From Myxococcales bacterium (GTDB lineage: Bacteria > Myxococcota_A > Polyangia > Nannocystales > Nannocystaceae): a stretch of 64,000 nt of DNA. The stretch lies in NCBI GenBank assembly GCA_020633315.1, contig JACKDV010000004.1, positions 384,071 to 448,070 on the forward strand, in the 5' to 3' direction. The position numbers and the translations under genes are program-made. Positions 4,989 through 53,241 of the stretch are shown piece by piece (position 1 is the stretch's first letter; each line of letters starts with the position of its first letter). A model generated the notes under the pieces. It was not told the DNA's origin. It saw only the letters and a program-made list of their open reading frames with translations, and ran no database searches.

Positions 4989-6332
4989 CTACGCGGCCAC
5001 CTCCTGCGTGGGCTCGAGCTCGCCCGACACCCCGCCGAAGCAGCGCGCGTACCAGCGGTTGAGGAACACCCCGTGCGGATCGAAGGCCGCCCGGGTGGCC
5101 TCCCACTGCCGCCACCGCGGGTGCCTTCGCGCGGGCCGGCGATCGCTCGCGGGGATCACCTTGGCCCAGTGCGCCCGCGCCTCGTACGAGTAGGCCAGCC
5201 GCACCAGGGCGTCCACCACCGGGGCCGCGGCTACCGCATCGAACACGTTGAGGTTGAGCCACGCCGTCTCCCGCCCGTCGTTGGGCGCCAGTGCCATGTC
5301 GATCGCGGGGCTGAAGCGCACCTGCACCTCGATCGCCGCGCTGCGTCGATCCTCCTGCATCAGGGCGATCGCCTCGCGCAGGCAGGCCGCGGCGCGGGCC
5401 CGCGGCAGCGCCAGCTCGATCTCGTCGTGCGGCGGCGCGAAGCCCCGCGAGTCGTAGGTGAGCCCGCGGTACCAGGGCGAGACCCGCGAGGGTCGCTCCG
5501 AGGCCTCCACGTAGGCGTGCCCCAGCACCTCCCACACCCGGGTGCTCAGCGCGGTCGGCATGCGCGAGGCCGGGTAGGCGGCCACCGTCCGGTTCACCGC
5601 CCACAGCCGCGTGGCCTCGATCGATTGCCGCAGCCGATCGCGCCACGACGGCGGGCCGGGCTCCACGTCCCACTGCCCCACCAGCGCCCGCGGCACCGAG
5701 CCGGCCCAGCGCAGGTCCACGAGATCGTGCCGCTCGAGCGCCGCCAGGGCCCGCTCGACCGCCTCCTCGCGGGGCACCGCGTGCTTGTGCTGCCGCACGA
5801 AGAAGAACGGGCGGCACTGCAGGGTGAGCTCGGTGATGATCCCGAACAGGCCCAGGGTCACCTGGCGCAGGGCGGCGCCCTCGAGCACCCGCGGCTCGCC
5901 GCGGCCGTCGACGAGGCGCATGCGCACCACCGACTCGGGCAGGGTCTGGCGGTAGCGTCCGCTGGTGCCGTGGGTCGCGGTGCTGGTGACTCCGGCCACC
6001 GTCTGCTCCATCCAGGCCCCGATGTTGGGCAGCGCCAGGCCGAAGCGCTCGAGCACCCGTACCAGCCGGTGGAGCGGCATCCCGCCCTGCACCGTGATCT
6101 GCATGCGCTCGCGGTCCACCTGCAGCACCCGGTGGAAGCGCGAGAGCTCGATCATCAGGTCGTCGGTGGTCCAGATTCGACCGAAGCTGTGGCGCGCTCC
6201 CACCACCTTCACCCGTCGTCCCTCGCGAGCGGCCCGCCGAACCAGGCGACACAGCTCGGGCTCGCTGGTGGGACGCAGGATCTCGGCCGGGCTCGCCCAC
6301 ACGCGGCCGCACCAGTTGGCGATACGTGGCAT
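4989..6332 (-). CDS. FAD-linked oxidase, D-arabinono-1,4-lactone / L-gulonolactone oxidase family.
   Basis: N-terminal FAD-binding PCMH region 'VKVVGARHSF', 'TVQGGMPLHRLVRVLERFGLALPNIG', plus an ALO-like C-terminal domain. The start was trimmed to 'MPRIANWCGRVW'. Confidence 0.8.
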   Translation of the reverse strand: MPRIANWCGRVWASPAEILRPTSEPELCRLVRRAAREGRRVKVVGARHSFGRIWTTDDLMIELSRFHRVLQVDRERMQITVQGGMPLHRLVRVLERFGLALPNIGAWMEQTVAGVTSTATHGTSGRYRQTLPESVVRMRLVDGRGEPRVLEGAALRQVTLGLFGIITELTLQCRPFFFVRQHKHAVPREEAVERALAALERHDLVDLRWAGSVPRALVGQWDVEPGPPSWRDRLRQSIEATRLWAVNRTVAAYPASRMPTALSTRVWEVLGHAYVEASERPSRVSPWYRGLTYDSRGFAPPHDEIELALPRARAAACLREAIALMQEDRRSAAIEVQVRFSPAIDMALAPNDGRETAWLNLNVFDAVAAAPVVDALVRLAYSYEARAHWAKVIPASDRRPARRHPRWRQWEATRAAFDPHGVFLNRWYARCFGGVSGELEPTQEVAA

Positions 6333-13750: not shown

Positions 13751-15508
13751 GTGGCTCGCTCCCCCCACGACTCGGTCCGCTTCCCGCTCCGCATCAAGCT
13801 CGCGATCTTCGCGGGCTTGCTGCTGGTCGCGCACATCGTGGCGGTGGGCTGGGCCGCGCTGCGGCTGACCTCGGCCTCGGTGGAGCGCGCCCAGCTCGAG
13901 CTGCAGATCGCGATCATCGAGGCGCTGTCGCGCGACATCGAGGCCGAGCTGGCCCAGGCCCACGACGGCCTCGATGCGATCGGCCGGGCCGCCGTCGACG
14001 AGAGCCTCGAGATGGACGCCCGGCTGTCGCTGGCCGAGGTGCTGGTCGAGAGCAACGAGGTGCTGGACAACACCCTGCTGTACACGGCCCAGGGCACCGA
14101 GCCCGTGCCGATCGTCGAGGCCAGCGCCTCGAGCCTGGCCTGGCCCGACCCCCTGCCCGCCTCGCTGCGAGAGCAATCGGTCGCGCAGGGGGTGGCCACC
14201 GGCGCGGCGGTGGCCAGCGACCACGGACCCCGGGTGCTGGTGGTGATGCCGATCCGCTTCGAGCACGAGGTGACCGGCTACGCCGCGAGCCTGGTGCCGC
14301 TGGCCGGGATCCAGCACCGCGTGGAGGAGATGGCGGCCGGCTACTTCGCGGGCATGCCCGATGCCCTGCTGGTGGTGGACGACCAGTTCCGGCTGCTCGC
14401 CCACCCCGACCCAGAGCGCGCGCTGGGCTCGGCCGCCGACGAACCCATCCTCGCCGGCATCGATCCCTCGGCCCTCGGGGCCCGCTTCTCGTCGTCGGGC
14501 GAGTTCACCCGCCCCGACGGCCACGCGGTGGTGGGCACCGTGGTCGGCCTCGACTCGCGGCCGTGGGCCATCGTGGCGCAGGTGCCCACCGAGATCGCCT
14601 TCGCCCCCATCGTGGCCATGCGCAAGGTGGTGGTGGGCACCGTGGTGGTGGCGGTGGTGGTGGCCCTGATCGCCGCCATCCTGCTCGCGCGGAGGATCAC
14701 CTCGCCCCTGGTGCAGCTGTCGCGCTTCGCCACCGACATCGCCCAGCGCAAGTTCGACGCGCGGGTCCACATCCACACCTCGGACGAGCTGGCGGTGGTG
14801 GGCGAGGCGATGAGCCAGGCCGCGGCCGACCTCGAGAACAGCGAGCACCGCATCCGTGAGGAGCTCGAGATCCGCTCCGACCTCGGGCGCTACCTGCCCG
14901 CCGAGCTGGTCGACAAGGTGGTGCGCCGCGAGCAGGACATGGAGCTCGGCGGCGTGCGCCAGGAGATCACCGTGATGTTCGCCGACGTCGTGGAGTTCAC
15001 GCCGCTGGCCGAGAAGCTGCCCCCCGAGCAGGTCGTCCAGATCCTCAACGAGCTGTTCACCATCGTCACCGAGATCGTGTTCCGCCACCGCGGGACCGTG
15101 GACAAGTTCGTGGGCGACTGCGTCATGGCCCTCTGGGGGGCGCCGACGCAGATCGAGGACCACGCCACGCTCGCCCTCGAGGCGGCGGAGGAGATCGTGT
15201 CATGGCTGGAGGCCGGGAACGAGACATGGGAGAAGAAGTACGGGGTGACGGTCCGGATCGCGATCGGGATCAACTCGGGGGAGGCGGTGGTGGGCAACGT
15301 CGGCTCACGCTCGAGGATGGAGTACACGGCGATCGGGACCACGGTGAACGTGGCGGCACGCCTCGAAGCCATCGCGAGACCGCAGCAGATCTTGATCTCG
15401 GAGCAGACGGCCCGACGAGCGGGGGAGGGATTCCAGCTCAGCCCGGTGGGCGAGCGTACGATCGCCGGGCACTCGGAGCCACTACGGCTGTACGAGGTGG
15501 TGACCTGA
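13751..15508 (+). CDS. Class III adenylate/guanylate cyclase with a periplasmic sensor, TM helix and HAMP domain.
   Basis: TM 'LAIFAGLLLVAHIVAVGW', a second TM 'VVVGTVVVAVVVALIAAILLA' followed by HAMP. Cyclase motifs 'VMFADVVEFTPL', 'KFVGDCVMALWGAP', 'IGINSGEAVVGNVG'. GTG start. Confidence 0.85.
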   Translation: MARSPHDSVRFPLRIKLAIFAGLLLVAHIVAVGWAALRLTSASVERAQLELQIAIIEALSRDIEAELAQAHDGLDAIGRAAVDESLEMDARLSLAEVLVESNEVLDNTLLYTAQGTEPVPIVEASASSLAWPDPLPASLREQSVAQGVATGAAVASDHGPRVLVVMPIRFEHEVTGYAASLVPLAGIQHRVEEMAAGYFAGMPDALLVVDDQFRLLAHPDPERALGSAADEPILAGIDPSALGARFSSSGEFTRPDGHAVVGTVVGLDSRPWAIVAQVPTEIAFAPIVAMRKVVVGTVVVAVVVALIAAILLARRITSPLVQLSRFATDIAQRKFDARVHIHTSDELAVVGEAMSQAAADLENSEHRIREELEIRSDLGRYLPAELVDKVVRREQDMELGGVRQEITVMFADVVEFTPLAEKLPPEQVVQILNELFTIVTEIVFRHRGTVDKFVGDCVMALWGAPTQIEDHATLALEAAEEIVSWLEAGNETWEKKYGVTVRIAIGINSGEAVVGNVGSRSRMEYTAIGTTVNVAARLEAIARPQQILISEQTARRAGEGFQLSPVGERTIAGHSEPLRLYEVVT

Positions 15509-15519
15509 GCACGCAGTGC

Positions 15520-16848
15520 ATGGCCCACGAGCTGCGCCCCGGCATGGTCATCGGCGAGCGCTACGTGATCACCGGCAAGCTCGGCGAGGGCGGCATGGGG
15601 CAGGTGTACCGCGCCACCCAGCAGAACCTCCGCCGCGAGGTGGCGCTCAAGCTGCTCGACTCCGGGGTGCTCGACGTGGCCACCGGGCACCGTCGCTTCC
15701 TGCGGGAGGCCCGGGTGGCGGCGGCCCTGCGGCACCCCCACGCGGTGGAGATCTACGACGTGGGCACCGACGGCTCCCACGTGTTCATCGCGATGGAGCT
15801 GCTCAGCGGCGAGGTGCTGCGCGACCTGCTGGAGCGGGTCGGCTGCCTGCCGCTGGACGAGGCGATCGACCTGACGCTGCAGGTCGCCGACCTGCTGGTG
15901 GCCGCCCACGCGATGCCGCTCATCCACCGCGACCTCAAGCCCGAGAACATCTTCGTGGAGGAGGATCGCGACGGGCACCTGCGCGCCCGCGTGATGGACT
16001 TCGGCCTCGCCTTCATCGAGGGCGGCGACGAGACGGGGCGGCTGACCAAGGAGGGCCTGGTGGTGGGCACCCCGGCCTTCCTCTCGCCCGAGCAGGCACA
16101 GGGCGGGCACGTGGGGCCGCCCTCCGACATCTACTCGCTGGGCTGCGTGCTCTACGAGATGCTCACCGGCCAGACCGTGTTCCGCGGCAGCCAGATGAAC
16201 ATCCTCACCCAGCACATCTACGTGGCCCCGACCTCGCTGCGCGAGCGGGTGCCCGACGCGGGCTTCCCCGCCGACCTCGACGATCTGGTGATGCGCATGC
16301 TGGCCAAGCGCCCCGCGGATCGACCCTCGGCCGAGGCGCTGATGGAGGAGCTGCACCTGGTGCAGGGCACCCTGGCCGGGCAGCGTCACCGCGGACGCGA
16401 CGATCGCCTGCTCGGCACCCGGCGCCACCGCATGATCTCGGTGCCCGCCCACCCCCCGCCCAAGATCGACCAGGAGGCGGTCGAGCAGGCCGCCCCCGAG
16501 CTCGAGGGCTTCCAGGTGGGGGTGCAGGGCGAGTTCCCCGACGAGCTGTGGTTCGGCATGGCGAGCAACGGCCTGTACGCCGAGCGCCTCGAGCCGGGGC
16601 AGGACCCCCGCGGGGCGCTGTGCGACGCGGTGCTGACCAACACCGACGACCCCCGGCGACTCTCCGAGCTGGCCGCCACCGGCGTGCCGGTGATCGTGGC
16701 CACCAACGCACGCGCCGACGAGCTCGCCGAGCTGCTGCGGCTGGGGGTCAACGAGGTGTTGGCCCCGCCCCTGGAGGCCGACGTGGTCGCCCGCAAGATC
16801 CGGCGCGCCGTGGAGCGCAGCCGCCGACGGATGAGGAGGAGACGATGA
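15520..16848 (+). CDS. Ser/Thr protein kinase (Hanks-type) with a C-terminal degenerate receiver-like domain.
   Basis: 'GKLGEGGMGQVYRA', 'VALK', 'HRDLKPENI', 'DFGLA', 'GTPAFLSPE'. The C-terminal ~110 aa resemble the alpha4-beta5-alpha5 half of a REC domain but lack an acidic pocket. Starts 12 nt after the cyclase stop. Confidence 0.85.
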   Translation: MAHELRPGMVIGERYVITGKLGEGGMGQVYRATQQNLRREVALKLLDSGVLDVATGHRRFLREARVAAALRHPHAVEIYDVGTDGSHVFIAMELLSGEVLRDLLERVGCLPLDEAIDLTLQVADLLVAAHAMPLIHRDLKPENIFVEEDRDGHLRARVMDFGLAFIEGGDETGRLTKEGLVVGTPAFLSPEQAQGGHVGPPSDIYSLGCVLYEMLTGQTVFRGSQMNILTQHIYVAPTSLRERVPDAGFPADLDDLVMRMLAKRPADRPSAEALMEELHLVQGTLAGQRHRGRDDRLLGTRRHRMISVPAHPPPKIDQEAVEQAAPELEGFQVGVQGEFPDELWFGMASNGLYAERLEPGQDPRGALCDAVLTNTDDPRRLSELAATGVPVIVATNARADELAELLRLGVNEVLAPPLEADVVARKIRRAVERSRRRMRRRR

Positions 16849-18074
16849 GCATCTGGATGTCCACCGCTGTGGCGGCCGCGGCTGCGGCCGTGGCCGCGCC
16901 CGAGCCGGCGCCCCCGGTCGAGACCATCGAGTACACGATCCGCAAGGGAGACACCTGCGCCAAGATCGCGACCGAGCGCTACGGCGACCGCAAGCACTTC
17001 GAGGTGATCCACCAGTACAACCGCTGGCTGGGACCCACGATGCCGCACCACCTCGAGGAGGGGCAGGTGCTGATCCTGCCCAAGACCCTGCCCCCCGAGC
17101 TGCCCGACGCCGAGGTCACCGCGGCGCGGCGCAAGGTGGAGGCCCGACCGCCCGAGGCCGCCCAGTGGAGCAGCGCCCGCCCGGGCCTCGACCTCTACCG
17201 CGGCTGGCGGGTCAACACGCAGGAGCGTGCCTCGGCCGAGATCACCTTCCGCGACTACTCCCGGATCGAGATGCGGGAGAACACCCTGGTGATCATCTAC
17301 GGGGGCTCGCGCAGCCGCAGCCGGCGCGAGACCACCGAGGCCACCCTCGATCGCGGGGCCCTGCGCGCGCGCCTGGGCGCCTACACGGGCAAGACCAGCG
17401 AGAGCGAGGTGACGGTGACCACCCCCTCGGCAGTGGCCGAGCTCGAGGGCGGCACCAGCCTCGTCACCGTCGACGACGGGGGCACCAGCCGGGTGGCCAA
17501 CCATGGCGACGGCAAGGCGAAGGTGGGCTCGTCGACCGGAGGCGGGGCCAAGGTGAAGGTGGGCCCCAAGATGGGCTCCAAGGTGGTCAAGGGCGAGCGG
17601 CCCTCCGCCGCGCGTCCGCTGCCGCCCACGCCGGTGTGGAGCGGACGCATGGCGACCACCTTCGTCGCCGCCGGCGGGCGGGGGACCATCCGCGGGAGCT
17701 GGGCGCCGGCGGAGAAGGCCGCGCGCTATCGGGTGGAGATCGCCAGCCAGCCCGACGGTCGCGAGCTGGTGGCCAGCCAGACCGTGCCGGCCACGATCAA
17801 CCGCTTCGAGGCCCAGGGCCTGCCTGCGGGCGACTACTACGTGAGCGTGGCGGCGATCGACGACGACGACTTCGAGAGCCCGCCCTCCGATCACCGCAAG
17901 CTCAGCCTGGTCTCGGTGCCCCTGCTCACCCCCGGCGGCGCGCCGCTGCCCGAGCCCGACGCCGCCGCCGAGCCCAGCACCACGCCCTCCCGCGTGCTGC
18001 GGGGCACCCGGCTCGACTTCCGCTGGGCCTGCGCTGCCGCGTGGACGCGGGCGAGCCCTCGCGCCAGCCGGTGA
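16845..18074 (+). CDS. LysM + FecR-like + FN3-like envelope protein. Appears interrupted by a frameshift at ~18024-18040 and probably continues into the next feature.
   Basis: ATG overlaps the kinase stop (ATGA). LysM 'YTIRKGDTCAKIA..GQVLILP'. An FN3-like 'RYRVEIASQPDGRE..GDYYVSVAAID'. The frame ends in a junk-like tail 'ACAAAWTRASPRASR'. Confidence 0.55.
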   Translation: MSIWMSTAVAAAAAAVAAPEPAPPVETIEYTIRKGDTCAKIATERYGDRKHFEVIHQYNRWLGPTMPHHLEEGQVLILPKTLPPELPDAEVTAARRKVEARPPEAAQWSSARPGLDLYRGWRVNTQERASAEITFRDYSRIEMRENTLVIIYGGSRSRSRRETTEATLDRGALRARLGAYTGKTSESEVTVTTPSAVAELEGGTSLVTVDDGGTSRVANHGDGKAKVGSSTGGGAKVKVGPKMGSKVVKGERPSAARPLPPTPVWSGRMATTFVAAGGRGTIRGSWAPAEKAARYRVEIASQPDGRELVASQTVPATINRFEAQGLPAGDYYVSVAAIDDDDFESPPSDHRKLSLVSVPLLTPGGAPLPEPDAAAEPSTTPSRVLRGTRLDFRWACAAAWTRASPRASR

Positions 18075-19057
18075 TCGACTCCACCGGCGAGCACACCGTG
18101 GCCTGCGTCACCGACGACGGCGTGGAGGTGCCCGGCTTCACCGTGCTCGCCATCGACGTCCAGATCGCCGCGGCCCGGGCCGAGGGCGCGATGCGGGGCG
18201 TGACCAGCGAGGCCAGCTTCACCCTCGACGCATCGATCCCGCTGCCCCGTCGCGTGTGGGTGGAGGCTCCCGCGGGCTTCTTGGTCGACACCCCCCGCGC
18301 TGGCGCGACGCCGGGGCAGTGGACGGTGTCGGTGCACCCCGACCAGGACGCCCCCGCCGAGGCCTCGCTGCGGGTGATGGCCGAGGCCGGCGGCACCGAG
18401 GTGGAGCTCGGTGAGATCCCGGTGGCGGTGGCCGAGCCGTCCTCGACGAGCCCCGTCACGCCCGAGACGAGCCCCGAGCCGCGCGGGCCCGAGCGGCACA
18501 TGTTCGAGCTGGGCGTGTGGGGCGGGGTGATGCTCCCCTCCTCCAATCACGACCTGTTCCAGGAGCGCTTCTCCAACGTCCCAGGGATCACGCTGGTGGA
18601 GCACCAGGCCCTGCGCCGCGCCGCGCCCGATCTCGGCATCCGCCTGGGCTACTACCCGATCCGCTGGGTGGGCGTGGAGCTCGAGCATGCGCTGGTCCCC
18701 ACCCGCACCCGCGACACCGGCGACCGGGCCACCGTCTTCGCCATCCGCGGGCAGGTGCTGGGGCAGCTCCCCTGGCGGGTGACCCCCACCGTGCACCTCG
18801 GCGGGGGTGCGCTGGGCGTGAGCGCCGGGCAGGTGCTCGGCCGCGACATCGATCGGGCGCTGCACTTCGGCGTGGGGGTGAAGGCCTACCTGGTCCGCTG
18901 GGCCGCGCTGCGCCTCGATCTGCGCGACGTGATCACCGAGGGTCACTCGGGCGGGGCCGCGCACTCCCCCGAGATCCTCGTGGGCGTGGCCGGCGTGATC
19001 GGCCGCCGCAGCGCAGCATCGCCCACCGGTCGCCGCCTGCGACCAGCCCGGCCGTAG
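18041..19057 (+). CDS. Ig-like domain + 8-strand OmpA-like beta-barrel. Probably the C-terminal continuation of 16845..18074, in the -1 frame.
   Basis: No signal peptide of its own. Its frame is open back to 17165. The beta-barrel 'HMFELGVWGGVMLPS...LRLDLRDVI...HSPEILVGV' is paralogous to the N-terminus of the downstream OmpA. Confidence 0.45.
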   Translation: MDAGEPSRQPVIDSTGEHTVACVTDDGVEVPGFTVLAIDVQIAAARAEGAMRGVTSEASFTLDASIPLPRRVWVEAPAGFLVDTPRAGATPGQWTVSVHPDQDAPAEASLRVMAEAGGTEVELGEIPVAVAEPSSTSPVTPETSPEPRGPERHMFELGVWGGVMLPSSNHDLFQERFSNVPGITLVEHQALRRAAPDLGIRLGYYPIRWVGVELEHALVPTRTRDTGDRATVFAIRGQVLGQLPWRVTPTVHLGGGALGVSAGQVLGRDIDRALHFGVGVKAYLVRWAALRLDLRDVITEGHSGGAAHSPEILVGVAGVIGRRSAASPTGRRLRPARP

Positions 19058-19136
19058 CAGGCCCGCGGGCGACGTTTCCCCGGGCTCCCGGGCGGGGTTT
19101 GGCGGCGAGCCGCGCTCGGGGCAAGGTACCGGGGTC

Positions 19137-20615
19137 ATGCTCCGCGCCTCGCTCCCCTTCGCGTCGGCTCTCCTGCTCGCCCTGGCCTCGGTCCCCGCCG
19201 CGGCCAAGGAACCCGCCGCCTCGGGCGACGCCGAGGCCGAGGCCGAGGTCTCGCTGGGCAAGGGAGGCCGCGAGGCGAAGGCCGAGCGACGCGCTCGCGG
19301 CGAGCCGGGCACGCGCAGCGATCGACCCTGGGCCAAGCGCTGGGCCCCCGAGGATCACCAGGTGGAGGTGGGCCTGTACGGCGGCGTGTTCCTGCCCTCG
19401 CGCCGCCTCGAGCTGTTCCAGGCCGACTTCTCGCTGGTGGACCAGGGCTACAAGCCCTTCGCCCGCGTGGCGCCCGACTTCGGCGTGCGCGTGGGCTACT
19501 ACCCGCTACGCTTCTTCGGCATCGAGGGCGAGGGCGGAGCGATGCCCTCGCGCACCACCACCGGCGACGCCGCCCTGATGTGGACGGCCCGGGCCAACCT
19601 CGTGGGTCAGCTCGGCCTGTGGAGCGTGACGCCCTTCGTGCTCGTGGGCGGCGGGCTGATCGGCGTGGCCAGCGATCGCAGCTCGGTGGGCAACGACGTC
19701 GACGCCTCGGCCCACGTGGGCGTGGGTGCGAAGGTGTTCCTCAGCCGCTACACCGCGCTGCGCCTCGACCTGCGCGACGTGATCGCGGCCCGACGCGGCT
19801 ACCACGAGGGCGTGGTGCACTCGCCCGAGATCCTGCTCGGCCTGAGCATCACCCTCGGCCGCGCCCGCGACGAGGCCCCGCCCCCGCCCCCCGACTCCGA
19901 CGGCGACGGCATCCTCGACCCCGACGACGCGTGCAAGGACGAGCCCGGCGTCCCCGACTACCGCGGCTGCCCCATCCCCGACTCCGACGGCGACGGCGTC
20001 CTCGACCCCGACGACGAGTGCAAGGACGAGCCCGGCGTCCCCGACTACCACGGCTGCCCCATCCCCGACTCCGACGGCGACGGCGTCCTCGACCCCGACG
20101 ACGAGTGCAAGGACGAGCCCGGCGTCCCCGACTACCGCGGCTGCCCCATCCCCGACTCCGACGGCGACGGCATCCTCGATCCCGACGACGCGTGCAAGGA
20201 CGAGCCCGAGACCAACAACGGCTTCCAGGACACCGACGGCTGCCCCGACGAGATCCCCGAGGAGGTCGCTCGCTTCACCGGGGTGATCGAGGGCATCTTC
20301 TTCGAGAACGACAGCGCCACCATCCGCCCGCGCTCGCGGCCCACCCTCGACAAGGCGCTCGAGGTGCTGCGCAAGCACGAGTCGGTGCGGGTGGAGGTCA
20401 GCGGCCACACCGACGATCGCGGCAAGCCCGAGCACAACCTCGAGCTCAGCCGCCGCCGCGCCGAGTCGGTCAAGCAGTACCTGGTGGAGGAGGGGATCGA
20501 CCCCGCCCGCATCACCACGCGCGGCGCGGGGCCCAGCGAGCCCATCGCCGACAACGGCAACAAGCGGGGCCGCGCCAAGAACCGGCGCATCGAGTTCAAG
20601 CTGCTCACCGAGTAG
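19137..20615 (+). CDS. OmpA-family outer-membrane protein: N-terminal 8-strand beta-barrel, 4 thrombospondin type-3 Asp-rich repeats, C-terminal OmpA domain.
   Basis: Signal 'LLLALASVPAAA'. TSP3 repeats 'PIPDSDGDGVLDPDDECKDEPGVPDY'. OmpA motifs 'VEVSGHTDDRG', 'NLELSRRRAESV', 'NRRIEFKL'. Confidence 0.9.
   Translation: MLRASLPFASALLLALASVPAAAKEPAASGDAEAEAEVSLGKGGREAKAERRARGEPGTRSDRPWAKRWAPEDHQVEVGLYGGVFLPSRRLELFQADFSLVDQGYKPFARVAPDFGVRVGYYPLRFFGIEGEGGAMPSRTTTGDAALMWTARANLVGQLGLWSVTPFVLVGGGLIGVASDRSSVGNDVDASAHVGVGAKVFLSRYTALRLDLRDVIAARRGYHEGVVHSPEILLGLSITLGRARDEAPPPPPDSDGDGILDPDDACKDEPGVPDYRGCPIPDSDGDGVLDPDDECKDEPGVPDYHGCPIPDSDGDGVLDPDDECKDEPGVPDYRGCPIPDSDGDGILDPDDACKDEPETNNGFQDTDGCPDEIPEEVARFTGVIEGIFFENDSATIRPRSRPTLDKALEVLRKHESVRVEVSGHTDDRGKPEHNLELSRRRAESVKQYLVEEGIDPARITTRGAGPSEPIADNGNKRGRAKNRRIEFKLLTE
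19891..20238 (+). repeat. Near-identical 87-bp direct tandem repeat x4 (encodes the 29-aa TSP3 units).
   Basis: 'cccgactccgacggcgacggc(a/g)tcctcgaccccgacgacg(c/a)gtgcaaggacgagcccggcgtccccgactacc(g/a)cggctgccccatc' recurs at 19891, 19978, 20065 and 20152, with only a few substitutions until the fourth copy diverges after ~60 nt. Confidence 0.8.
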
Positions 20616-20936
20616 CGCGATCGCGCCGCGGATTGCCGCGCTCCACGCTCCGTTGCGGGTGAGCAGATCACGCGCCGAAGCTTCGGTAGATCGCCTCGCG
20701 ATTGAGCAATGGCAGCCACGCCGACCCGCACCGATCCCCACAAAAACCCCAGCGAGCAGCCGTGAGCCAGTCAGAGTGTGCGGCACACTGCGTTTTGTGC
20801 TTGCACAAAGGGTACGAAGGACCGCACGATCGAGCCGTCCGGCCTCCCAGGGATGTGCATCTTGCGCACACGGGAGTCCCTTCGGGGTCACCGGCACTGC
20901 CCATGCCACAGGCCAGCGACCCCGCCACGAATTACA

Positions 20937-21130
20937 GCGCGACCGTGGTCACCGCTCGGGTCACATTTGGGGGCGACCCGGGCGGTGGCCCCTTTTCGAC
21001 CCCTTTCCTCGGGGTCAGTGCCGACTTCCCTCGCGTCAGCTAGAGTTACTGCGACCGAGGTCGCCGCTCGGACCTATTTTTGGGGGCGGTCCGGGCGGCG
21101 GCCGCTTTTTCGTCGGCCGCCGCGACCTCG
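20937..21130. repeat. Two copies of a ~55-60-nt GC-rich structured intergenic element between convergent OmpA genes.
   Basis: Copy A 'gcgaccgtggtcaccgctcgggtcacatttgggggcgacccgggcggtggcc'. Copy B 'gcgaccgaggtcgccgctcggacctatttttgggggcggtccgggcggcggcc'. Both hold 'gacc-N3-ggtc' and 'ccg-ct-cgg' mini-palindromes. Copy B is followed by a 9-bp-stem hairpin 'cggcggccg-ctttttcgt-cggccgccg'. Confidence 0.4.
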
Positions 21131-21132
21131 GC

Positions 21133-22671
21133 TCACTGCACCTTGAACTCGATGCGTCGGTTCTTGGCGCGACCGGACTTGGTCTTGTTGTCCGCGATCG
21201 GCTCGTCGGGCCCGGCCCCACGCGTGCTGATCCGATTGTCGGCCACGCCCTTGTCGACCAGGTACTGCTTGACCGACTCGGCACGCCGGCGGCTGAGGTC
21301 CATGTTGTCGTCGCGGCTGCCCACGTCGTCGGTGTGGCCGCTGATCTCCACCCGCACCGAGTCGTACTTGACCAGCACGCTGGCCACCTTGTCGAGCTTG
21401 CGCTTGGAGGTCTTGCGGATCGTGTCCTTGCCGGTGGCGAACTCGATGCCCTCGAGCACGCCCTCGAACTGGGTGATCTCGGCGGGGAGCTCGTCGGGGC
21501 AGCCGTCGGTGTCCTCGAAGCCGTTGTAGTTCTCGGGCTTGTCCTCGCACGCGTCGTCCACATCGAGGATGCCGTCGCCGTCCTTGTCGGGGACCGGGCA
21601 GCCGTCGGCCCCGTCGCCCCACTCGTTGGGGCAGGCGTCGCTGCGATCGGGCACGCCGTCGTTGTCGGAGTCGCGGTTGAGCGGGCAGCCGTCCTCGTCC
21701 TCGCCGTACTCGTCGGGACACTCGTCGTAGTAGTCGGCGATCGTGTCGCCGTCGCGATCGCTCCGCTTGGCTCGCCACTCCTCGCCGATCCACTTGGTGA
21801 GGCGGATGTTCACCTCGGCCCCCACCAGCAGCTCGCCGTGGTGGGCCCGGTTGCCGTCGATGCTCGAGCCGGTGACGATGTGGCGCCCGTCGATGCGGAC
21901 GGCGATCCAGTCGTTGATGTAGAACTTGGCCCCGGGGCCCCAGTGGAACGCCGGGTCGCCGCCGTTGAGGATGGCGGCGTCCTTGGACTTGAGCGCCAGC
22001 AGGCCGCCGCCCACGGCCAGGGTGGGCGTGAGGCGGTAGGGCAGCGAGCCGATCACGTGGCCCCGCACCGCATAGAAGGTGCCCTTGGCCCCGCCCGGCA
22101 CGCTGTCGCTCGAGGTGGGCATGATCGACGACTCGAAGCCCACGCCCACGTAGGGGATCACCATGTACTCGAGGTGGAAGCCGAAGTCGAAGTTGCCGCG
22201 CCGGATGCTGGGCTGCGGACCCTCGGAGCGGTCGAACAGGCCGTGGTTGTTCGCGCGCCAGAAGCCACCGAGGTGGAAGCCCGCGTTGATCATGTGGTTG
22301 GTGGGCCTATAGCGCTCGAAGAACGGACGCTCGTCCTTCTCCTTGGGCTTCTTGTCGCCCTTGTCCTTCTTGCTGCGCTTGGCCTTGCCCTTCGCCTTGC
22401 CCTTGCCGCCGCCGCCGAGGCTCACCGAGCCGCTGGCCGAGCCCGAGGCCGACGCCCCGGGGGCCTCCTCCTCGTCCTCGCCCTCGAGCGGATCGTCGTA
22501 CTCCTCCTCGGCATCGCTGCCCTCGAGATCGTCGTACTCGTCGTCCTCGATGATCTCGTCGTCCTCCTCGGGCTGGGCGTGGGCGAGCTCGGGGATCGCG
22601 ACCAGGCCCAGGCCCAGGGCGAGCGCCAGCACGCGGGAGGAATCGGACGAGCGAGGAGGCGTGTGCGTCAT
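21133..22671 (-). CDS. OmpA-family outer-membrane protein with an acidic linker, Lys-rich segment, beta-barrel, TSP3 repeats and C-terminal OmpA domain.
   Basis: Signal 'VLALALGLGLVAIPELAHA'. 'DRDGDTIADYYDECPDE', 'DSDNDGVPDRSDACP', 'DKDGDGILDVDDACED'. OmpA 'VEISGHTDDVG', 'NMDLSRRRAESV', 'NRRIEFKV'. Confidence 0.85.
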   Translation of the reverse strand: MTHTPPRSSDSSRVLALALGLGLVAIPELAHAQPEEDDEIIEDDEYDDLEGSDAEEEYDDPLEGEDEEEAPGASASGSASGSVSLGGGGKGKAKGKAKRSKKDKGDKKPKEKDERPFFERYRPTNHMINAGFHLGGFWRANNHGLFDRSEGPQPSIRRGNFDFGFHLEYMVIPYVGVGFESSIMPTSSDSVPGGAKGTFYAVRGHVIGSLPYRLTPTLAVGGGLLALKSKDAAILNGGDPAFHWGPGAKFYINDWIAVRIDGRHIVTGSSIDGNRAHHGELLVGAEVNIRLTKWIGEEWRAKRSDRDGDTIADYYDECPDEYGEDEDGCPLNRDSDNDGVPDRSDACPNEWGDGADGCPVPDKDGDGILDVDDACEDKPENYNGFEDTDGCPDELPAEITQFEGVLEGIEFATGKDTIRKTSKRKLDKVASVLVKYDSVRVEISGHTDDVGSRDDNMDLSRRRAESVKQYLVDKGVADNRISTRGAGPDEPIADNKTKSGRAKNRRIEFKVQ

Positions 22672-22841
22672 GAGGTGGCTCCGAGAGACGTCGACGCTGG
22701 GCACACCGGAGTGTCGGGGCTTTGCCCCCCGTCTCGGCCGTGCACCTACATCGTCACGCTACACGGCTCGTCCGTCACCGGTCAATCCCGCTCGGACGCC
22801 GATGGGCCCGCGAGCCCATGCCCCGGCTCGCCCCGACGGTG

Positions 22842-50704: not shown

Positions 50705-51838
50705 CTAGCCGCCCACGAAGCCGTCCAGCCCCGCGAGGCGCTCCACGTGGTGCTGCTCGTCGCCCAGCATGGTGTTGAGGGCCAGCATCCGCTTGAAGTA
50801 GAGGCCGATGTCGTGCTCGTCGGTGATCCCGATGCCGCCGTGGAGCTGGATGGCCTGCTGCGAGACGAAGCGGCCGGCGCTGCCCAGCTTGGCCTTGGCG
50901 GCGCTCACCGAGCGCCGGCGCAGCTCGTCGTCGGCCTCGTCGGCGCGCAGCGAGGCCATCATCGACATGGAGCGCAGCAGCTGCACCTCCACGAACATGT
51001 CCACCGCCCGGTGCTGCAGCACCTGGAAGCTGCCGATGGGCACCCCGAACTGCTCGCGCTCCTTGAGGTGGGCCACCGTCATGTCGAGCATGGCCTGCGC
51101 CACGCCCAGGCCCTCGGCGCAGGCGGCCGCGGCCCCCAGGTCGAGCACCCGCTGGAGCACCGCGAGCGAGGCCGGCCCCGGCTCGCCCAGGCGGCGATCG
51201 TCCTCCACCACGGCGCCGTCGAGGCGCAGCCGCGCCGCGCCGTGACCGTCGATGGTCCGCAGCGGGCGTCGATCCACCCCGGGTCCGTCCGCGTCGACCA
51301 CGAACAGGCCGAGGCCGTCGGGGGTGCTCGCCGAGACCACGAGCTGGTCGGCGGCCTGACCCCCGAGCACGAAGACCTTCTCGCCGCTCAGGGCCCAGCC
51401 CTTGCCCTCGCGCGTCGCGCTGAGCCGCGGCTGGCTCGCGTCGTAGCGGCCGTCTCGCTCGGCCCAGGCCAGGGCGAGCACCGACTGCCCCTCGATCATC
51501 GGCGCGAGCCAGCGCTCGTGCTGTGCCTCGCTGCCGGCGCGGGCCAGCGCCAGGCCGGCGAGCACCACCGAGGCCAGGTAGGGCTCGGGCGCGAGCGCCT
51601 TGCCCAGGCCCTCGAGGATGATCGCGACCTCCACCGGGCCGCCGCCGAAGCCCCCCGCCTCCTCGGGGAAGGGCACCGACAGCCAGCCCAGCTCGCCCAT
51701 GTGGGCCCAGACCTCGGGGTCGTGCGGCTGGCCGGCGGCGCGGAGCTTGCGGAAGCGCTCGACCGGCGAGCGCTGCTTGACGAAGGACGCGACCGTCTCG
51801 GCCAGCATCTTCTGTTCGGGCGTGGGCTCGAAGTCCAT
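50705..51838 (-). CDS. Acyl-CoA dehydrogenase-family protein, second of a pair.
   Basis: ACAD C-terminal helical domain 'LGSAGRFVSQQAIQLHGGIGITDEHDIGLYFKRM'. Starts 11 nt after the upstream ACAD stop. Confidence 0.85.
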   Translation of the reverse strand: MDFEPTPEQKMLAETVASFVKQRSPVERFRKLRAAGQPHDPEVWAHMGELGWLSVPFPEEAGGFGGGPVEVAIILEGLGKALAPEPYLASVVLAGLALARAGSEAQHERWLAPMIEGQSVLALAWAERDGRYDASQPRLSATREGKGWALSGEKVFVLGGQAADQLVVSASTPDGLGLFVVDADGPGVDRRPLRTIDGHGAARLRLDGAVVEDDRRLGEPGPASLAVLQRVLDLGAAAACAEGLGVAQAMLDMTVAHLKEREQFGVPIGSFQVLQHRAVDMFVEVQLLRSMSMMASLRADEADDELRRRSVSAAKAKLGSAGRFVSQQAIQLHGGIGITDEHDIGLYFKRMLALNTMLGDEQHHVERLAGLDGFVGG

Positions 51839-51849
51839 GGCTCGTCCCT

Positions 51850-53034
<1,185 letters not shown>

Positions 53035-53241
53035 CGACCGGATTCTACCGGAGAGTCGGCGCTTGTCTACCGAACGGTCGTACGGGCGAGATGCTCCCGG
53101 AACACGGCTCTGGGAGCGCCTGGCCCGGGGGAGGGCCCGAGCCGAGACCACGACGCGCAGCGGGCGACCCTTCGAAAGGGAGCGAGCGCGCCGGCTGGGG
53201 GCACGGCGCGCTCGAGGGTCGGTCGATGGCCCGAGGGGTCG

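Follow-up and report, generated by a model that had tools for sequence, protein, structure and literature searches.

A one-base deletion has very probably disrupted a conserved LysM-FecR-Ig-barrel envelope gene in an uncultured Nannocystales-like Myxococcota bacterium

We have analyzed a stretch of 64,000 nucleotides (nt) from the metagenome-assembled genome (MAG) of a Myxococcales bacterium (assembly GCA_020633315.1, contig JACKDV010000004.1, positions 384,071 to 448,070; in the following called the window), in which an envelope protein appears as two overlapping open reading frames (ORFs). Very probably, an envelope gene that is conserved in Myxococcota has been disrupted here by a genuine deletion of one nucleotide, leaving a recently fixed truncation, which would be either a pseudogene or a variant without membrane anchor. 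According to this explanation, one C was lost from a C run, turning an ancestral ...NTC CCG... into the present TTCCG, and the intact protein would have consisted of a signal peptide, a LysM domain, a FecR domain, an FN3-like domain, two Ig-like domains and a C-terminal eight-strand outer-membrane barrel. The coordinates of all features are collected in Table 1.

Results

The reading frame switches within the gene

As the G+C content of the window is 71.6%, the G+C content at third codon positions (GC3) is a sensitive indicator of the coding frame. The upstream ORF begins with an ATG at 16845 and ends with the TGA stop at 18072-18074, and it is overlapped by the -1 frame (codon starts at positions equal to 2 modulo 3), which is open from 17165 to 19057. 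Calculated over 120 nt at a time, GC3 is 0.95-0.97 in the frame of the upstream ORF up to ~18000 and 0.92-1.00 in the -1 frame between ~18000 and 19000. Codons ending in A or T are found in the -1 frame at 18011, 18014 and 18017, and the first such codon in the frame of the upstream ORF is at 18033. Because of these positions, the switch was placed between 18020 and 18033. This confirmed that the coding frame changes within ~15 nt and that the 17 residues RWACAAAWTRASPRASR with which the upstream ORF ends are an out-of-frame tail.

The downstream half remains open over 345 codons (1035 nt) without any further stop or frame break. Gene callers let it start either at GTG 18041, yielding a product of 338 amino acids (aa) that is annotated as 'hypothetical protein H6712_10815', or at GTG 18071, whereas the upstream half is annotated as 'FecR domain-containing protein' in two MAG records at NCBI. 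Each of the halves is represented by two different NCBI protein accessions.

Orthologues locate the lesion

For the homology search one C was added after 18020, which resulted in a restored query protein of 737 aa. At least 93 homologues were obtained with this query. Each of the top ~60 is one protein with a length of ~705-775 aa, and the coverage of the query is 90-100% for the majority of them. P0001-P0026 match with E = 0 and 58-75% identity over 96-100% of the length. These top homologues originate from Myxococcota, and those with a name are MAGs labelled Myxococcota, Myxococcales or Nannocystaceae as well as the cultured Paraliomyxa miuraensis. Among the homologues listed, the sole entry with 100% identity is the truncated product of 409 aa (P0027). 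The search did not return the cluster of the downstream half though it is present in the collection, i.e. its results are not exhaustive.

The orthologues, which are annotated as 'FecR domain-containing' or 'LysM peptidoglycan-binding domain-containing' and belong to the Nannocystales and other Myxococcota, are colinear with the restored protein over 96-100% and share its domain order and neighbourhood; examples are P0013 of Paraliomyxa miuraensis with 771 aa and P0001 with 746 aa and 75% identity. In contrast to these single ORFs, the frame in the window is broken by a deletion of 1 nt after residue 392. In a comparison of 60 loci, using one genome per species, a single-frame high-scoring segment pair (HSP) of tblastn spans restored residues 385-405 in 55 loci; in the other five the HSP ends before residue 405, or far upstream in the case of two short matches. 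The uninterrupted ORF of the Myxococcota LysM-FecR-Ig-barrel orthologous group is broken in the window and in seven related contigs.

The alignment of 21 orthologues has a mean column identity of 58% and gives the consensus RVLRGTRLDVPxGLRCxVDxGExSRxPVL at the junction. Pro393 of the restored protein (codon CCG) is invariant in all 21 aligned orthologues. In detail, the codon alignment reads GAC GTC CCC CGA GGC CTG CGC TGC for L067, GAC GTG CCC CGC GGG CTG CGG TGT for L068 and GAC TTC C-CG CTG GGC CTG CGC TGC for the window, so that exactly one base is missing, and the restored junction peptide is RLDF-P-LGLRCRVDAGEPS.

The original prediction, which was made from the sequence alone, had described a junk-like tail of the frame 16845-18074, a continuation of the protein in the overlapping frame open from 17165 and a one-base indel that splits one domain-coherent envelope protein. 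All of this agrees with our results, as the tail lacks an orthologue counterpart and GC3 decays along it, and as a single C restores the invariant proline and the conserved motif. The proposed position of the indel (18027-18040) has to be corrected, since the codon alignment places the lesion 7-20 nt further upstream at 18018-18022, and the proposed fusion peptide 'RLDFRWAC?CRVDAGEPS' is replaced by the restored junction given above. It had also been asked whether orthologues are single ORFs or are split at the same point: in every full-length orthologue one ORF runs through the junction, and none of them is split there.

Frame changes at other places were seen in the barrel part of two orthologues, namely L023 (~5794-5842, corresponding to restored residues ~607-626) and L053 (~5958-5989, residues ~666-676), and the C-terminus of P0051 is garbled in the alignment, consistent with the break in L053. 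These breaks may be sequencing errors or independent disruptions. In addition, some relatives carry two family copies on different contigs (L012 and L017; L030 and L042; L032 and L037), so paralogues exist. A second copy of the N-terminal half was not found within the 64-kb window.

The same deletion is present in other assemblies

The truncated protein of 409 aa is encoded on six further contigs (L001-L006). Four of these are ENA contigs (ERZ27309337; ERZ27309119; ERZ28655665, from WANG18-1 SAMN08389244; ERZ28655915, from WANG18-1 SAMN08389188) and two are Logan contigs (SRR12358675 and SRR12358676). A seventh contig (L069; ERZ28655045, from WANG18-1 SAMN08389256) encodes a variant with one changed residue, M66L. 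All seven come from MEGAHIT-style ENA assemblies and Logan assemblies, with at least five sample names among them. Their identity to the window is 99.8-100%, and they align without gaps at the junction and contain the identical string CTCGACTTCCGCTGGGCC.

Single-nucleotide polymorphisms (SNPs) among the contigs were found within the gene at 17040, 17063, 17078, 17645, 17777 and 18286, which define at least six haplotypes, and further differences exist at three sites of the kinase gene upstream (16546, 16561 and 16564). The latter distinguish L001 and L002 from the window, are non-synonymous (L to M, A to S and S to R), lie after the catalytic domain and make up a small block of linked haplotype differences. 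Since seven other contigs, representing several haplotypes, share the deletion, it is unlikely to be an assembly error of this record, and the deletion is older than the strain diversification sampled here.

To find an intact allele, the restored protein (737 aa) and its M66L variant were looked up as exact sequences in a collection of 15 billion proteins, and neither was found. Two scans of JGI metagenomes, in which the deleted as well as the intact allele would have been recognized, gave 0 matches for both, which is uninformative because the species is seemingly absent from that collection.

Table 1. Positions of the split gene, its predicted domains and the neighbouring genes in the window
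Feature	Position	Strand	Residues	Basis or remark
Upstream ORF, 409 aa	16845..18074	+		Putative signal peptide, LysM, FecR beta domain, FN3-like domain and first Ig-like strand, then out-of-frame tail and TGA
N-terminal helix			4-14	AlphaFold2, low confidence; no basic n-region
LysM-like domain	16923..17084	+	~27-80	AlphaFold2 strand-helix-helix-strand; pLDDT ~69-88 across residues 21-80
FecR-type beta domain	17112..17594	+	~90-250	Pfam PF04773, 32.4 bits vs 24-bit cutoff, residues 123-217
FN3-like beta-sandwich	17652..17924	+	~270-360	AlphaFold2 strands 272-358, pLDDT ~74-93, mostly 86-93; Foldseek matches to FN3/Ig arrays
Linker			~361-380 (restored)	AlphaFold2, low confidence
Ig-like domain 1	17982..18178	+	~380-445 (restored)	AlphaFold2 strands 382-385 and 396-443, pLDDT ~87-92
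Frameshift site TTCCG	18018..18022	+		Orthologues NTC/NTG CCN; codon alignment with L067, L068 and L007-L010; Pro393 invariance; GC3 switch
Out-of-frame tail of upstream ORF, 17 residues RWACAAAWTRASPRASR and stop	18021..18074	+		No counterpart in orthologue alignment; GC3 in its frame decays from 18033
Downstream half, -1 frame	18020..19057	+		Rest of Ig-like domain 1, Ig-like domain 2, Pro/Ser linker, eight-strand outer-membrane barrel
Ig-like domain 2	18206..18433	+	~455-530 (restored)	AlphaFold2 strands 455-530, pLDDT ~86-91
Pro/Ser-rich linker				AlphaFold2 model; between Ig-like domain 2 and barrel
Eight-strand outer-membrane beta-barrel	18494..19000	+	551-719 (restored)	AlphaFold2, eight long antiparallel strands
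HAMP/nucleotidyl-cyclase-type gene	13751..15508	+		NCBIfam matches to cyclase and HAMP regions
Ser/Thr protein kinase	15520..16848	+		Pkinase Pfam match for this gene in contigs L001 and L002; stop overlaps start of split gene by 4 nt (ATGA)
Paralogous barrel, TSP3-like repeats and OmpA C-terminal domain protein	19137..20615	+		Pfam OmpA 85 bits, OMP_b-brl 30.8 bits

Domain architecture of the restored protein

An AlphaFold2 model was built on an alignment of 22 sequences and has a mean predicted local distance difference test score (pLDDT) of 77.8. The helix predicted at residues 4-14 is probably a signal peptide. The frameshift junction (residue 392/393) is located inside Ig-like domain 1, between the modelled strands 382-385 and 396-400, and not in the preceding linker; because of this position the cut ignores the domain boundary.

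The match to LysM (PF01476) covers the full profile (1-43) with 16.6 bits and E = 0.0076 and is below the cutoff of 20.9 bits, and an NCBIfam LysM match with E = 1.5e-5 is below its cutoff as well. In the FN3-like region Pfam returned weak Ig_J and E-set matches only. Both barrel profiles likewise remained below their cutoffs (PF13505 OMP_b-brl, 15.9 vs 28.7 bits; TIGR04565 OMP_myx_plus, 23.9 vs 60 bits). Some orthologues carry precomputed matches to LysM (PF01476) and OMP_b-brl. In addition, the protein encoded by the following gene (19137-20615) has an N-terminal barrel that passes PF13505 and shares 47% identity with the barrel described here. A Foldseek search against the PDB retrieved the transmembrane domain of OmpA (9fzc_A, TMt 0.68; 1bxw, TMt 0.62) together with Ig/FN3 arrays.

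The domain content given by the original prediction (LysM, FecR and FN3 followed by Ig and barrel) holds to a large extent: FecR is above the Pfam cutoff, LysM and OMP_b-brl are below theirs, and the AlphaFold2 model displays a LysM-like alpha/beta unit, a FecR beta domain, three beta-sandwiches and an eight-strand barrel. A well-formed Ig-like domain starting at ~18041, as it had been proposed, is not what the model indicates, as the first Ig-like domain begins before the lesion and is interrupted by it.

OmpA from E. coli consists of an eight-strand transmembrane barrel and a peptidoglycan-binding domain. Its transmembrane domain can be superposed with the modelled barrel, and much as in OmpA, the outer-membrane barrel appears to be linked to a putative peptidoglycan-binding module. 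In contrast to OmpA, however, the order is reversed here, with the barrel at the C-terminal end and with FecR and three beta-sandwich domains in between. The putative peptidoglycan-binding module is LysM instead of OmpA_C, whose profile PF00691 is absent here and present in the two neighbouring genes.

Genomic neighbourhood

Genes for the cyclase and the kinase are found upstream in nearly all of the 60 related Myxococcota loci, as judged by tblastn of the window proteins, and one or two paralogues with barrel, thrombospondin type-3 (TSP3) and OmpA parts are located downstream in the closest orthologous loci (window 13751-22704 compared with L007-L066). The order of cyclase, kinase and LysM-FecR-Ig-barrel gene apparently represents a conserved and uncharacterised envelope-signalling module. 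A literature search combining LysM, FecR, beta-barrel and Myxococcota yielded nothing relevant and no family member.

The protein encoded at 19137-20615 contains, at ~19870-20250, four near-identical tandem units of ~34 aa with the pattern DSDGDG[IV]LDPDD[AE]CKDEPGVPDY[RH]GCPIP, which are thrombospondin type-3-like and sit between the barrel and the OmpA_C domain. The match of L069 to the window ends at 19299, just upstream of this repeat region.

The window was also scanned roughly for other frame switches by GC3, and the candidate that was inspected, an abrupt frame change at 51850, turned out to be a normal boundary between two adjacent genes on the reverse strand (50705-53151), which look acyl-CoA dehydrogenase-like by eye and of which the second has a proper ATG start (MDFEPTPEQK...).

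Discussion

A disrupted gene

Frameshift pseudogenes and split genes are common in bacterial genomes and MAGs. The present case resembles them in that a conserved ORF is cut short by an indel of one base within a short homopolymer, with its downstream part still open, and nothing about it is unusual except that the lesion is common to several strain haplotypes from several samples. If the gene is indeed disrupted, translation from 16845 would stop at 18074 after 17 out-of-frame residues, giving an exported fragment of 409 aa without membrane anchor. The downstream half, having neither a signal peptide nor a Shine-Dalgarno-like start nor the first Ig strand, would most likely not be made as a working outer-membrane protein. 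The mutation would be fixed, or nearly so, in the natural population of one uncultured species.

The sequences show directly that there is a deletion, where it is, that independent assemblies contain it and that the orthologues are single ORFs, whereas it is inferred that the C-terminal half has lost its function and that this happened recently. Tajima-type relative-rate counts of the C-terminal half against P0001, using five outgroups, were 40/31, 25/30, 26/37, 33/29 and 24/32 and show no accelerated substitution relative to P0001. Five of the six changes within the population are synonymous and the sixth is a conservative M-to-L exchange; just one, a synonymous one, falls into the downstream half. 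A recent inactivation fits these data, as the downstream half displays neither rate acceleration nor further stops.

There are however several points that weigh against a disrupted gene. The downstream GC3 of 0.92-1.00 and the synonymous nature of the sole polymorphism there are also what continued translation and selection would give, and six SNPs are far too few to calculate a ratio of non-synonymous to synonymous substitution rates (dN/dS) or to separate a recent pseudogene from a gene that is still expressed. Moreover, the MAG and some of the seven contigs may have been assembled from common read sets. That the contigs are independent is therefore supported in part by the differences in sample names and SNP haplotypes, and assemblies rather than reads were compared.

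Alternative explanations

The two halves could have become separate working proteins by functional gene fission, with the downstream one starting at GTG 18041 or being translated by stop-start coupling at GTGA (18071-18074). Indeed, a GTG at 18071 overlapping the TGA stop is a classical coupling arrangement, two genes were called both by the gene callers and in the submitters' annotation, and the sole SNP of the downstream half is synonymous. Nevertheless we consider a fission very unlikely, as the cut would run through a folded Ig-like domain and not through a linker according to the model, and no orthologue is split at the junction. Neither GTG 18041 nor GTG 18071 is preceded by a Shine-Dalgarno-like motif. 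Judging from its beginning (VDAGEPSRQPVIDSTGEH...), the downstream product has no signal peptide, and its barrel could then not reach the outer membrane; lacking a hydrophobic N-terminus, such a product on its own would be expected to stay in the cytoplasm. The absence of an own signal peptide and of a convincing start is in line with what had been stated at the outset.

About as improbable is the suggestion that the split is maintained instead of decaying, either because the population benefits from a soluble LysM-FecR fragment in the periplasm that lacks the anchor, or because non-canonical -1 slippage at CUU_C still gives a little full-length protein. If true, the latter would mean that a high-GC bacterium has a recoding site of an unusual kind, lacking a slippery heptamer.

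An assembly or sequencing error in an intact gene, such as a homopolymer that was miscalled when long reads were assembled alone or in a hybrid approach, was one of three alternatives raised by the original prediction, besides a genuine frameshift and phase variation. A single base in a short C run is the usual kind of indel error, and the breaks in L023 and L053 show that frame breaks which are possibly errors do occur elsewhere in MAGs of this family. Such an error is, however, hardly to be expected at an identical junction in seven further contigs with at least five sample names and differing SNPs. The run consists of CC only and is not a long homopolymer, and the intact protein of the species is absent from the collection of 15 billion proteins. 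Thus, among the three alternatives, the genuine frameshift is the one favoured by the contigs, an error is very unlikely, and phase variation (see below) finds no support.

Full-length protein could also be made by programmed -1 ribosomal frameshifting or by low-level slippage of tRNA-Phe from UUC to CUU. If the ribosome shifted by -1 after TTC, the next codons would be CCG CTG and the product would have exactly the conserved sequence ...DFPLGLRC...; moreover, the downstream frame has a high coding signal and is unbroken for 1035 nt. The site itself (C GAC TTC CGC), however, contains no slippery heptamer of the type X_XXY_YYZ. A tRNA-Phe that has slipped onto CUU would, according to established codon-anticodon rules, mispair at the first codon position. 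The RNA at 18010-18130 does not fold better than dinucleotide shuffles (minimum free energy z = -0.22; 81 of 200 shuffles fold as well), and more than 50 orthologues all do without a frameshift at this site, so that recoding is not conserved in evolution. Recoding is accordingly a highly improbable explanation.

Finally, a phase-variable (contingency) switch, in which reversible slipped-strand gain and loss of a base would turn the outer-membrane anchor ON and OFF, is the least credible possibility: the gene product is an envelope protein, and envelope proteins are often phase-variable in other bacteria, but the homopolymer or short repeat for which the original prediction had proposed to look at the junction amounts to a C run of two bases, Tandem Repeats Finder and a repeat search found no tandem or direct repeat at 17800-18300, and all eight sequences are OFF without any ON allele having been found.

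Conclusion

A disrupted gene, the explanation that we prefer, is an event ordinary in kind, which opens no new mechanism or question. Its value lies mainly in annotation: the NCBI entries of 409 aa and 338 aa would be the two parts of a single disrupted gene, for which a flag as frameshifted pseudogene is appropriate. For the biology of this group, it would be a small natural example of how uncultured Nannocystales-like Myxococcota can lose an outer-membrane-anchored envelope protein that belongs to a conserved module with cyclase and kinase.

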